Source of the DNA: a virus
Direction: 5' to 3' (one strand)
Length of the DNA stretch: 64,000 nt
IMG/VR virus record: IMGVR_UViG_3300022690_002678
The notes under the pieces: model-generated
What the model saw: only the letters and a program-made list of their open reading frames with translations
Told to the model about the DNA's origin: nothing
Databases searched by the model: none
Position numbers and translations under genes: made by a program
Shown here: in pieces, positions 39,328 through 42,823 of the stretch
Position numbering within the stretch: the first letter of the stretch is position 1
Layout: each line of letters starts with the position of its first letter

Positions 39328-40194
39328 GTGGCAAATAAAAAAAATGTATACATGCCACCTGAGGCAAAAATCATAATTCTCAAAGACTTTGATTTATCTA
39401 AAATTGAGGACACTTTCCAGTATGCGTCCTTTGAGCGTAGGGTATCAAAGCAAAAGGTTCACAAGATTGCCCAGGCAATCATCGATAACAAATTCACTGA
39501 TAATGTATTGCGTGTTGTTGCATCTAGCGGTGCTGTAAAATATGACGTAATTGATGGGCAGCATAGAATTGAAGGGCTGCGATACGCCAGAGACTATCGG
39601 GGTCTGGCTACCTATGATCTGGTCTTGTTTATGTATCTGGGAGGAGACAAGCGAGAGATTTATCGCAGACTGAATTTGGGCAAGCCATTAACGTTAAGTG
39701 ATCATCTAAAGGCACTAGACACTGGAAACTCTAAATTTTTTAATGAGCTGCGAGTATTTTGTGATCATTACACAAAGGGCGGCAAGCTGCGTTATGCATC
39801 AATAATTAACTGTCTATACTATGCAAAATCCACATCAATCAGGCCAGTAAGACCGCTAGCCATTGATGACTTTTTGCAAAGCATCACAGCACACGATATC
39901 ATTACTGTCAAGAAATTCATTCCAATACTCCAGCAAGTTGCAACAAATCCTGACTCGCCATTTTATCACTATACAATAATGAGAAATTTTTTCAGAATCT
40001 ATTATGAAAACAACATTGCAGAAGACGGCATGATTGCATTGGGTGATCTGATAAGAAAGTCTCAAAAAGTTTTAGACCTGGCTGAAAAAAGAGACACTTT
40101 TGCCATGCGAGGAATCTATCACTATTTGATTGATAGAATGGCACCCAAAGTTGGTTTGCATCTGGAGAAGGGAATTGTCAAAGACCACGGATAA
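39328..40194 (+). CDS. DGQHR-motif ParB/Srx-superfamily protein
   Basis: YDVIDGQHRIEGL and YRRLNLGKPLTLSDHL; overlaps the TasA-like gene. Confidence 0.8.
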   Translation: MANKKNVYMPPEAKIIILKDFDLSKIEDTFQYASFERRVSKQKVHKIAQAIIDNKFTDNVLRVVASSGAVKYDVIDGQHRIEGLRYARDYRGLATYDLVLFMYLGGDKREIYRRLNLGKPLTLSDHLKALDTGNSKFFNELRVFCDHYTKGGKLRYASIINCLYYAKSTSIRPVRPLAIDDFLQSITAHDIITVKKFIPILQQVATNPDSPFYHYTIMRNFFRIYYENNIAEDGMIALGDLIRKSQKVLDLAEKRDTFAMRGIYHYLIDRMAPKVGLHLEKGIVKDHG

Positions 40195-41209
40195 ACAAAA
40201 AAAGAGAACAGCAAAGGTTAGCAAAAAGATTCCTGTAAAAAAAACTGTAATCCCAAAAAAAGCCTCAAAGACAAAACCTGTCAAAAAATCAAAACGAACT
40301 GCTGCACCAAAATACATTCAGCCAACTCCTGCCAGAACAAATAAGGTTGATGTTCCCATCCCATACAAGGACACAGATAAGGTTCCTCCACATCTGCTGC
40401 GAACTCTAGTTGACACTTATTATGATTTTCAGGGACAGAGAATTCAGACGGAGCTTCGCATTGCTGCTGCCAAAAGAAATCATGGTCTGACAGAAGATGA
40501 CATGTCCCTATATGGAATTACTACAATCTTTGAGAACGCACGATCCTTTGAGCGAGACCTGGAGAAAATTATTAAAAAACAGCTATTAAACCACGCAATG
40601 TATACTCAATATTTAGTAAAGATTATGGGTATAGGGCCAATACTTGCTGCTGGTCTGATATCGTATGTGGATAATATTGAGCGCTTTAAGCATGTTAGTA
40701 GTCTGTGGCAGTTCGTTGGATATGGGATGAATACTTTTTGCTCTGAATGTAACAATCCGAATTTTGTTATAGTAGAATACGAGACAGGAAAAAAGGCAAA
40801 AAAACTGCATCCAGTAAAACTCTGTGATGTCTGTGGAACTAAAACTGTGCCAATTCTGCAAAAGCGAACCACAGGATATCAGTCTAATTGGAATAACAGA
40901 CTAAAGACTCTATGCTGGAATGCAGGATCATCATTTGTAAAACAGTCAGCCAAAAAGTCTGGGTATCGTAAACTATATGACCAGATAAAAAAAGAAGAAC
41001 GCAAAGCCCATCCAAAAAGAATAACAATAAACAAAAAGATAAAGTTCAATGACGGTCACATACATAACAGAACCATGCGGAAAGTAGTCAAAATATTTCT
41101 TGCACACTTTTGGCAAACTTGGCAGAGACAGCAAGGACTGCCAGCAAATGAGCCATATGTAAACACACTATTAGGTCACAGCACTGTGGAGGCATTTACT
41201 GACAATTGA
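40175..41209 (+). CDS. tasA: TasA-like Nop-domain RNA-guided DNA-binding protein (no RuvC/HNH), with Zn-ribbon insertion
   Basis: LVDTYYDFQGQRI coiled coil, GIGPILAAGLI, SLWQFVGY, NWNNRLK, GHIHNRTMRKVVKIFLAHFW, PYV..LLGH; adjacent 36-nt dual-repeat array; start TTG 40175 or ATG 40130. Confidence 0.85.
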   Translation: MSKTTDKQKKRTAKVSKKIPVKKTVIPKKASKTKPVKKSKRTAAPKYIQPTPARTNKVDVPIPYKDTDKVPPHLLRTLVDTYYDFQGQRIQTELRIAAAKRNHGLTEDDMSLYGITTIFENARSFERDLEKIIKKQLLNHAMYTQYLVKIMGIGPILAAGLISYVDNIERFKHVSSLWQFVGYGMNTFCSECNNPNFVIVEYETGKKAKKLHPVKLCDVCGTKTVPILQKRTTGYQSNWNNRLKTLCWNAGSSFVKQSAKKSGYRKLYDQIKKEERKAHPKRITINKKIKFNDGHIHNRTMRKVVKIFLAHFWQTWQRQQGLPANEPYVNTLLGHSTVEAFTDN

Positions 41210-41409
41210 AATCCTTAGAAGAACAGCTAGAAGACTACAAAAAATTCAATGCTGCTAAAAACAAGTTTGTTGGTATAGTTATTCGAGAATGGGTAGAGAA
41301 ACTACAACTACATGTTACTGCAAGACAATCCTGCATTACTGACATGCTAGAGTTTGCAGAAAGGATAGAGAAAAGTGACGGTGTGATAATATTTGATTCT
41401 GGTAAATGA
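41206..41409 (+). CDS. 67-aa helical protein between tasA and array
   Basis: TTGA overlap with tasA stop. Confidence 0.55.
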   Translation: MKSLEEQLEDYKKFNAAKNKFVGIVIREWVEKLQLHVTARQSCITDMLEFAERIEKSDGVIIFDSGK

Positions 41410-41443
41410 TATAAAATGATGTACATTTACAACGAGGTGATCT

Positions 41444-42243
41444 AGTCAACATACATTTGAAATCCAACGTTTAGATGCGAGTCACAATGCATATGAAAAT
41501 CCAATAGCAAATAACGAGTCATTTAATTTGCGAAACCCATCGTATAGCTACGAGTCAGAATACTCTTAGAAATCCATATAGGGCAAGCGAGTCATCTCTC
41601 ATATGAAACCCACGAATCTCTTACGAGTTAGACAATTCCTGAAAACCATCGTTAGGGTACGAGCCACCTTGAATATAAAATCCAAAACTATGTTGCGAGT
41701 CAGGGGGGATATGAAAACCAAAAAATGGTTACGAGTTAAAAAACGATTGAAATCCAAGTAAACCATACGAGTCATTCAAATCTTGAAACACAATCTGTCA
41801 ATACGAGTCAGGGGGCATTTGAAAACCAAAAAAGGGAAACGAGTCATCCACTTCATGAAAACCATAAATGCGTTACGAGTTACTTTGTAGCTGAAACCCA
41901 TACATGCAGTACGAGTCACCTCATAGATGCAAACCCAGATAAATCTTACGAGCCATCAACCGAATGAAAACCATGTCTCATTTGCGAGCCAATAATACCT
42001 TCAAACTCCTAGAATAAATGCGAGTCAAATATGAAAAGGAACCCATTTTAGAATTACGAGTCATTCCTCACATGAAAACCAAATTAAAATAACGAGTCAA
42101 GGCGCGAGTGAAACCCATGTATCACATACGAGTCACCAACCGAATGAAAACCATGTAACACATACGAGTCATTCAACACTTGAAATCCAACAAAAGAAGA
42201 CGAGTCAAATCCCCATTGAAGACCAATCAATACAGACGAGGTT
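41444..42243 (+). repeat. TIGR array, segment 1 (22 units)
   Basis: Period ~36 nt: edge repeat (T/A)(A/G)CGAGTCA + 9-nt spacer A + loop repeat TGAAA(A/T/C)CCA + 9-nt spacer B; three units have a 10-nt loop. Confidence 0.92.
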
Positions 42244-42265
42244 AATGGTTCATGAGTAAATTTAA

Positions 42266-42356
42266 TGCCGAGGGTGGGTTTCGAACCCACGACCTCCAGA
42301 TTATGAGTTTTGCCTTTTGGAGATCTGGCACTCTAACCAGGCTGAGCTACCTCGGC
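42266..42356 (-). tRNA. tRNA-Met(CAT), elongator type, with ~16-nt non-canonical intron (about 42308-42323)
   Basis: GCCGAGG/CCTCGGC+A; CCAGA-[intron]-CTCATAA-TCTGG; T arm GTGGG-TTCGAAA-CCCAC. Confidence 0.9.
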
Positions 42357-42395
42357 ACAATATATGCCATGAAATTTGGAAAAATAAATGCTACG

Positions 42396-42799
42396 TATGA
42401 GTCAATTCGTGTTTGAAACCCAAGAGTGTACATACGAGTCAAACTACAATCTGAAACCAAATCGAGGAATACGAGTCCGTTTAAAGATGAAAACCATATA
42501 ATGCATACGAGATATTTTCCATTTGAAACCAAAGAAAACAATTCGAGTCATCTAGAAAATGGAACCAATCTAAAAAATACGAGACATCATCAATGTGAAA
42601 ACCATGGCATACATTCGAGCTATAGTGATCTATGAAATCCAAACATAACTTGCGAGTCTAAAATAGAATGTAACCCAGCATAACATGACGAGTCAAATAC
42701 CCTTTGAAGCCCAGAAAATTGAGACGAGTTAGGATACCATTGAAACCTAAGAGAAACATACGAGTCCAAATCGGATGTGAAACCCATACCAATTATGCG
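42396..42799 (+). repeat. TIGR array, segment 2 (11 units, more degenerate repeats)
   Basis: Same edge/loop alternation with 9-10-nt spacers; ends in TGCG. Confidence 0.9.
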
Positions 42800-42823
42800 A
42801 CTCGTATCTTTTCTTTTTCTTTT
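42759..42823 (+). terminator. Stem (TACGAGTC/GACTCGTA) plus T-rich tract closing the array
   Basis: 42759-42766 is the reverse complement of 42799-42806; followed by TCTTTTCTTTTTCTTTT. Confidence 0.6.

Follow-up and report, generated by a model that had tools for sequence, protein, structure and literature searches.

IMG/VR virus record IMGVR_UViG_3300022690_002678 was analysed over a stretch of 64,000 nucleotides, called the window here. Between positions 39,328 and 42,823 it carries an operon of three genes followed by an array of short repeats. We conclude with high confidence that this locus is a TIGR-TasA system with dual repeats, of the tasParB-tasA type, and that its carrier is a head-tailed archaeal virus whose hosts are probably Nitrososphaeria. 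A previous reading of the letters without database searches (the sequence-only reading) had described three overlapping genes, and these were confirmed at the following positions:

39328-40194, + strand: tasParB-like gene; 288-amino-acid (aa) product with a ParB/Srx-fold N-terminal domain and a DGQHR motif at residues 76-80
40175-41209, + strand: tasA, encoding a 344-aa nuclease-less Tas protein; TTG start; middle gene of the operon
41206-41409, + strand: small conserved open reading frame (ORF) of 67 aa, probably helical; third gene of the operon, overlapping the tasA stop by 4 nt

The tasParB-like gene and tasA overlap by 20 nt. PADLOC gave no match for any of the three genes.

TasA scored 175.4 bits against the curated equivalog model NF052498 of NCBIfam (TIGR_Tas_endo, 'TIGR-Tas system RNA-guided endonuclease'), well above its cut-off of 100. 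A phmmer search of the PDB matched TaTasR (9MTY chain A), from the ribonucleoprotein of Faure et al., with an E-value of 1.9e-33 and SpTasH with an E-value of 5e-14. An AlphaFold model was built from 35 homologues (predicted local distance difference test, pLDDT, 78) and compared with known structures, a comparison that the sequence-only reading had suggested for 40175-41209. TasR and TasH were closest, followed by IS621/ISCro4 and then Nop5. Against TasR (9MTY), VIA-align gave a Z of 20.4 at a root-mean-square deviation of 2.2 Å over 200 aligned residues with 39% identity, model residues 71-344 aligning to TasR 111-322. The Z against TasH was 18.9. The IS621/ISCro4 recombinases reached Z 14, the IS621 match being confined to IS621 residues 124-319, and Nop5, Nop56 and Nop58 reached Z 6-8. 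An IS110-family transposase is not supported: TasA scored 26.3 bits against the IS110 model NF033542, under the cut-off of 140, and is without the N-terminal catalytic domain.

The structural alignment begins at TasA residue 71, facing TasR 111 and TasH 66, past the RuvC and HNH domains of these proteins. Residues 1-63 of TasA are a disordered, Lys-rich tail (pLDDT <50). The tail is followed by a coiled coil (72-137) and a Nop domain that contains a four-cysteine (Cys4) insert and a Tyr328/His335 loop. The model contains neither a RuvC nor an HNH domain. Up to residue 186 it is free of beta-sheet, and the strands found at 186-227 are part of the Cys4 insert. Having only a coiled coil and a Nop domain, without a nuclease, the protein is therefore TasA. 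Thus, the curated hidden Markov model (HMM) and the sequence and fold matches to solved TasR and TasH support both the TIGR-Tas identity and the nuclease-less subtype that had been proposed from the letters.

Residues C189, C192, C217 and C220 are invariant in the 35 homologues and frame an insert of ~40 residues made of short strands. In the alignment this insert is absent from TaTasR and SpTasH; it is probably a zinc ribbon. Also invariant in the homologues are Y328 and H335, which align to SpTasH Y289 and H296, the residues that cut pre-tigRNA (PMC13421893). The Tyr/His dyad marks dual-repeat TIGR systems (Xu et al.). TasA thus retains the pair and, judging from this alignment, is predicted to process pre-tigRNA autonomously.

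Since Nop5, Nop56 and Nop58 have a Nop domain in common with TasA (Z 6-8), the locus might instead be a viral cluster of box C/D-like guide small RNAs (sRNAs) with a Nop5-like protein, directing 2'-O-methylation of RNA. Archaeal hosts possess box C/D machinery, and the 9-nt guide halves of the array are of similar order to sRNA guides. However, the fold is much nearer to TasR and TasH (Z 19-20) than to Nop5, and the protein starts at the coiled coil, without the N-terminal domain with which Nop5 holds fibrillarin. The repeats are without canonical C (RUGAUGA) or D (CUGA) boxes, and TasR was published as inactive on RNA substrates. We consider a methylation guide cluster very improbable.

The array of the TIGR-TasA locus and its flanking elements are arranged as follows, the TATA box and the terminator being read from the sequence:

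41410-41416, + strand: TATAAAA, candidate archaeal TATA box from which the array would be transcribed; the first edge repeat follows 24-30 nt downstream
41440-42243, + strand: TIGR sub-array 1; 22 units (41440-42234) with a degenerate opening edge ATCTAGTCA and a truncated closing edge GACGAG at 42235
42396-42804, + strand: TIGR sub-array 2; 11 units (42396-42795) with a truncated closing edge TGCGAC at 42796
42808-42823, + strand: T-rich run TCTTTTCTTTTTCTTTT, likely archaeal oligo-T terminator of the array transcript

Parsing of the sequence gave 33 guide units of 36-37 nt each, in tandem and head to tail on the + strand. A unit consists of a 9-nt edge repeat (consensus TACGAGTCA), the 9-nt spacer A, a 9-10-nt loop repeat (consensus TGAAA(A/C/T)CCA) and the 9-nt spacer B; both spacers are variable. 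The repeats are more degenerate in sub-array 2 than in sub-array 1, a difference that the sequence-only reading did not mention. A 25-nt pattern of edge plus loop, with up to 3 mismatches allowed, matched the window 30 times, all on the + strand and 29 times inside the array. In dinucleotide-preserving shuffles of the window, the mean was 1.67 matches and the maximum 6, so that 0 of 100 shuffles reached 30. Parse and shuffle control thus confirm the 33 dual-spacer units of ~36 nt, with the edge and loop consensus, described in the sequence-only reading. The gap between operon and array, given there as 35 bp, needs correction: the first, degenerate edge repeat begins 31 nt past the stop codon of the third operon gene. 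Note that Tandem Repeats Finder did not detect the array in the window, because half of every unit varies.

For comparison we used 16 related viral or metagenomic loci (designated by L numbers) from ENA, Logan and IMG/VR. They share the operon and both repeats, edge and loop, with the window; their arrays, of 3-35 units, lie downstream or upstream of the genes. Loci L001 and L003 have similar AT-rich boxes ~25 nt ahead of the first array unit.

The repeats covary in a manner that points to RNA. The loop repeat has the form UG...CCA in 189 of 201 units, and the edge repeat the form UA...UCA. In TaTasR, the UG...CCA ends pair in both repeats, and the edge repeat has one further pair. In 215 of the 225 junctions (95.6%) from the window and the 16 relatives, a standard base pair links edge-repeat position 7 of one unit (i) to edge-repeat position 2 of the following unit (i+1). 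The pairs are A-U (161), G-U (21), U-A (18) and G-C (15), of which U-A and G-C are compensatory. When partners were shuffled, the mean paired fraction was 76.8% and the maximum 82.2%, with 0 of 5000 shuffles reaching the observed value. Within a single repeat, the same two positions pair in only 78%, and the pairing partner is therefore the next edge repeat. The adjoining positions, 6 in unit i and 3 in unit i+1, form G-C at 219 junctions and A-U at 4. In both sub-arrays, the pairing rule holds at each of the window's informative junctions (8/8). Sub-array 2 retains the box C/box D covariation, for example from 42506 to 42542 and from 42578 to 42614. Such covariation would be expected if the transcript were cut inside the CGAG core, each 36-nt RNA closing by two base pairs. 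Together with the parse, the edge-to-edge pairing upholds the dual-spacer 36-nt unit, and as covariation between units it argues against a DNA-level reading of the repeats.

A DNA-level reading would make the repeats partition or centromere iterons bound by the ParB-like protein, the Tas-like gene being unrelated or a degenerate IS110-type remnant. A ParB-fold protein is indeed encoded beside a long phased repeat, and Pfam gives only a weak Transposase_20 match for the second gene. However, the covariation between edges i and i+1 resembles the closing stem of an RNA, not a protein-binding iteron, and a binding site would not be expected to leave half of each unit free to vary. The second gene, moreover, passes the TIGR-Tas model, fails the IS110 model and retains the RNA-processing dyad. 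We give the iteron explanation very little credence.

We next turn to the partners of TasA in the TIGR-TasA operon. The AF2 model of the ParB-like protein (pLDDT 80.6) matched ParB, Noc, KorB, PadC and sulfiredoxin in Foldseek with E-values of 6e-4 to 1e-2 and probabilities of 0.98-1.0, and the protein matched PHROG 1033 ('ParB-like partition protein') with an E-value of 8e-7. Matches to Pfam GmrSD_N and NCBIfam DGQHR were weak and under their cut-offs. The DndB/DGQHR models TIGR03187 and TIGR04172 gave 13.7 bits (cut-off 58.85) and 12.9 bits (cut-off 450), respectively, covering the motif region only. Besides DGQHR there is a second invariant block, REIYRRLNLGKPLT; both are invariant over 14 sequences with a mean column identity of 76%. 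The motif reads DGQHR in the window and in 13 of 13 relatives, compared with DGFHR in the published TasParB signature. In every related locus checked that includes upstream DNA, a homologue of the ParB-like gene stands immediately upstream of tasA. The 67-aa ORF is conserved as well. Homologues of 62-77 aa occur in five loci (L007, L013, L001, L012 and L014), in one of which the gene stands upstream of the operon, and the family has invariant residues W29, D46, M47, K56, G59 and V60. Pfam, NCBIfam and PHROG returned no family match for it. As a side observation, a conserved protein of ~599 aa is encoded directly upstream of the tasParB-tasA operon in eight relatives (L001 6672-8468, L006 3636-5435 and L008 292-2091; also L010, L011, L013, L016 and L017); it does not adjoin the operon in the window.

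The conservation of the ParB-like protein raises a variant of the TIGR-TasA assignment, in which the DGQHR protein is the effector, through NTP-dependent clamping and spreading, or through nicking or modification as in DndB or GmrSD-type ParB domains. Its gene is invariably present and better conserved than TasA (76% against 59% mean column identity), and its motifs resemble DGQHR/DUF262. On the other hand, no curated DndB/DGQHR or GmrSD model is passed, no nuclease domain is recognised in the C-terminal helical half, and other TasA proteins repress without a partner. An effector role of the ParB-like protein is possible, but we would not favour it.

As to transcription, processing, DNA binding and biological targets, we infer the following course for the TIGR-TasA system. 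Both sub-arrays would be transcribed rightwards from AT-rich promoters. TasA would dimerise through its coiled coil and bind the box D/box C-like ends of the edge (UA...UCA) and loop (UG...CCA) repeats, and the Tyr328/His335 loop would cut within the CGAG core of each edge repeat. This would produce a 36-nt tigRNA composed of GUCA, spacer A, UGAAAnCCA, spacer B and UAC, with ends closed by two base pairs. Each ribonucleoprotein would then read an 18-bp DNA site, spacer A on one strand and spacer B on the other. Because TasA is without a nuclease domain, the outcome would be binding that blocks transcription or replication, with no cleavage. Both invariant partners, the ParB-like DGQHR protein and the small one, probably work on the bound complex or together with it. 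The inference of the sequence-only reading, that the system is a programmable binder and not a nuclease, is consistent with 2026 preprints on other TasA proteins, which show TasA to be a repressor guided by RNA (10.64898/2026.09.09.750476) and to use both spacers in binding DNA (10.64898/2026.08.11.744272). Repression and electrophoretic mobility shift assays (EMSA) were shown for MbTasA, and ternary structures for PlTasA.

The spacers are partly shared between viruses. There are 26-34 spacer families common to 2-9 loci, and at least 6 guides of the window (41476, 41513, 41549, 41802, 42199 and 42578) belong to shared families. Several spacer pairs of sub-array 1 are identical or near-identical to pairs in related viral arrays. 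Identical 18-nt pairs occur in viruses whose TasA is 63-68% identical to that of the window, with different surrounding repeats; the unit at 41513, with copies in L006 and L008, is an example. Within families, spacers differ at 11.5% of positions and repeats at 14.6%. Variable sites are scarce at positions 4-5 of both spacers (7 of 84 variable spacer sites, binomial p 0.0014) and in excess at position 9; note that these counts come from related sequences, not from independent events. In TasR, the seed adjoins base pairing with spacer position 5. The pattern would fit guides kept by selection for conserved targets. Variation with a period of 3, which would suggest coding targets, was weakly supported (15 of 50 pairs compared with 25% expected) and was rejected.

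Because identical pairs persist across TasA proteins of 60-70% identity while the repeats drift and constraint is strongest at the seed, we tentatively raise the idea that the array is a vertically inherited 'core' guide set and not a fast-turnover memory of invaders. TasA and its ParB-like partner might then form a viral multi-target regulator of conserved host or competitor genes. We put this forward as a conjecture that may well prove wrong; if true, comparative genomics could here, for the first time, lead to natural TIGR targets.

Guides also recur within arrays. One family combines GGGGGC(A/T)TT as spacer A with a spacer B rich in A; it is found in six loci (L003, L008, L009, L010, L015 and L016) and twice in the window (41694 and 41802). 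Near-duplicate guides in the window are 41947 and 42127, and 41766 and 42163. Together, these suggest that arrays grow by duplication of units followed by divergence.

Several results weigh against the TIGR-TasA assignment or the activity proposed for it. Most concern targets, which were searched for in both half-site arrangements because published statements on the cut position differ; the published 8-nt 3' overhang favours spacer A followed by the reverse complement of spacer B. The 33 guides of the window found no target in the window in either arrangement. For 245 guide pairs searched against 320 kb of related loci, including a geometry-free search, nothing exceeded the shuffled-partner controls, and the three complete related genomes contained no self-targets. 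One conserved guide family had 10 one-mismatch hits in 401 Nitrososphaeria genomes, which is the level of the reversed-pattern control. Four exact IUPAC-code scans of IMG/VR returned background only, plus one contig cluster. At the level of the repeats, the edge repeat deviates from the UG...CCA consensus. At the level of the protein, the zinc ribbon is absent from every characterised Tas protein, and the properties of this TasA could differ. Among public runs, the locus was found in a single one, of marine-sediment metagenome DNA, and in no RNA run.

Two individual matches arose in these searches. A site in a 5'-3' exonuclease/RNase H-like gene, present in 6 related contigs, matches a degenerate form of the reverse complement of spacer B followed by spacer A. 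It was treated as chance: the site has no exact match among the real guide pairs, and the contigs are hit by no other guide. In three other loci, the ~599-aa gene has a one-mismatch site for one guide of L001, which does not exceed what chance would give.

The viral setting of the locus was examined by homology and synteny. A protein search with TasA returned 127 close homologues, all on metagenomic or viral contigs, and with the patterns used there were no cellular relatives in representative genomes of 185,579 prokaryote species. Three related IMG/VR records, of 42-51 kb, are rated 100% complete. Window positions 600-32400 are syntenic with the structural modules of the complete IMG/VR relatives at 50-89% protein identity, and this stretch includes a Mu F-like head protein. 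The locus therefore sits in a head-tailed virus, in agreement with the viral setting assumed in the sequence-only reading. A nucleotide search of GenBank phages gave no match, and tblastn against them only distant Tas homologues, including that of Salicola phage CGphi29.

Between the two sub-arrays lies a further gene:

42265-42357, - strand: intron-bearing tRNA gene (ARAGORN; Rfam RF00005, 56.6 bits)

The split of the array by this tRNA gene is a feature missing from the sequence-only account. The anticodon is ambiguous, being UCC if the intron is at 37/38. TATA-like TTTATTTTT lies ~25-33 nt upstream on the - strand, and the gene is transcribed in the direction opposite to both sub-arrays. 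A Logan contig covering 42328-42966 confirms the junction between the tRNA and sub-array 2. The tRNA has no counterpart in the 16 related loci. In the source sediment run, contig depth was 1300-7600x over the tRNA stretch compared with 15-100x over the flanks, and abundant community members therefore carry nearly the same tRNA. A host origin is one possible explanation of the gene; a role as recombination or attachment site is another.

The tRNA also bears on the host. Of 121 sampled genomes of the class Nitrososphaeria, to which a 'Thaumarchaeota archaeon' metagenome-assembled genome (MAG) belongs, 76 matched it, with up to 91% identity over 95 nt including the intron. With lengths of 85-93 nt, the window's four tRNA genes all fit the presence of introns. 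A two-domain multicopper oxidase is encoded at window positions 47391-48392 (+ strand), and among cellular sequences it is most similar to a protein of that Thaumarchaeota MAG (40% identity). A cupredoxin gene adjoins the TIGR locus of relative L003 (L003 12076-12738). Copper proteins such as multicopper oxidases and cupredoxins are typical of ammonia-oxidising archaea. The copper-protein genes of the window and L003 are possible auxiliary metabolic genes. From these comparisons, the host of the virus is probably a member of the Nitrososphaeria, that is, an archaeon of the ammonia-oxidising type. The thaumarchaeal host named in the sequence-only reading thus receives indirect support, through tRNA similarity and the copper oxidase.

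To the right of the TIGR locus lies a part of the window for which the complete genomes of related viruses contain almost no homologues. It encodes an integrase-like protein (57313-58521, + strand; PHROG 216, E 1e-5) and a tRNA-Gly (48994-49078, - strand), and includes a low-GC stretch (27-33%) at 48000-58000. Possible readings of this part are a variable or integrative module, and host DNA at the flank of a provirus. As a separate observation, a gene at 49521-51107 (+ strand) encodes an N6/N4 DNA methyltransferase fused to a restriction endonuclease domain of the Mrr type (Pfam N6_N4_Mtase with E 3e-46 and Mrr_cat with E 1.5e-6; type II/III MTase models of PADLOC).

The first descriptions of TIGR-Tas systems date from 2025. 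The locus and its 16 relatives form a compact conserved set, with three genes, arrays of up to 35 guides and archaeal virus genomes rated complete. Guides kept across divergent viruses under seed-centred constraint argue for conserved targets and supply a short list of guides for experiments. Tas proteins are under development as a compact tool for genome targeting, and in this protein family the invariant insert, probably a zinc ribbon, and the DGQHR partner offer variations that can be tested. The finding brings no new mechanism; its value is in the comparative set that it makes available.

Faure et al. (Science 2025; PMC12045711) defined TIGR arrays, TasA, TasH and TasR, 36-nt tigRNAs and the tandem-spacer rule, and placed many loci in phages and archaeal viruses. 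Their fig. S14 shows tasParB-tasA operons with dual-repeat arrays and sets the DGFHR motif of TasParB beside the DGQHR of DndB; their structure-based alignment file (Data S1) includes a protein of the present TasA clade, AF-A0A7J4RW13. Xu et al. (2026) catalogued 6,685 arrays and showed that TasA represses transcription in a guide-dependent manner, and a second 2026 preprint presents structures of TasA on DNA. The architecture of a ParB-like protein, TasA and a dual-repeat array, and its carriage by archaeal viruses, is already reported. With system kind, subtype, gene pairing and viral carriage published, the locus is a new, well-preserved example and not a new class. In Faure et al. and the 2026 preprints we found no description of a Nitrososphaeria-virus setting, the Cys4 insert, the third small protein, unit-by-unit covariation, seed-centred guide conservation or an intra-array tRNA.

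The tasParB-tasA loci of Faure et al. resemble the present locus in several ways: a parB-like gene shares an operon with a tasA that lacks a nuclease, dual-repeat arrays are placed upstream or downstream of the genes or between them, the partner's ParB-like fold has its motif at the position of the ParB catalytic site, and the flanks vary. Going by the published description, they differ in their motif (DGFHR, whereas the window has DGQHR as in DndB) and in their repeats of 10 nt rather than 9 nt. No third small ORF, Cys4 insert in TasA or intra-array tRNA is mentioned for them. The characterised TasA proteins, FpTasA (Flavonifractor plautii), MbTasA (Minisyncoccota) and PlTasA (Peromyscus gut metagenome), are likewise nuclease-free, with coiled coil and Nop domain standing alone. 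The tigRNAs that they bind are 36-nt or stem-loop RNAs; MbTasA acts as a guide-dependent repressor of transcription and PlTasA binds DNA via both spacers. All of them are bacterial or from the candidate phyla radiation, and none has a reported ParB-like partner or zinc ribbon. PlTasA, unlike the TasA of the window, uses stem-loop guides and is without the Y/H loop. SpTasH of Salicola phage CGphi29 (PDB 9W03 and others) has a dual-repeat array and the Tyr289/His296 dyad that aligns with Y328/H335. In contrast to the present locus, it has an N-terminal HNH nuclease, 8-nt spacers and a bacterial-phage carrier. The closest solved relative of the window's TasA is TaTasR of Thermoproteota archaeon LB_CRA_1 (9MTY), which shares the 36-nt unit, the 9-nt spacers, the UG...CCA loop repeat and the two-base-pair edge closure. 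TaTasR cuts DNA with an active N-terminal RuvC domain (residues 1-110), whereas the TasA of the window has a disordered Lys-rich tail in its place, together with the probable zinc-ribbon insert of ~40 residues.

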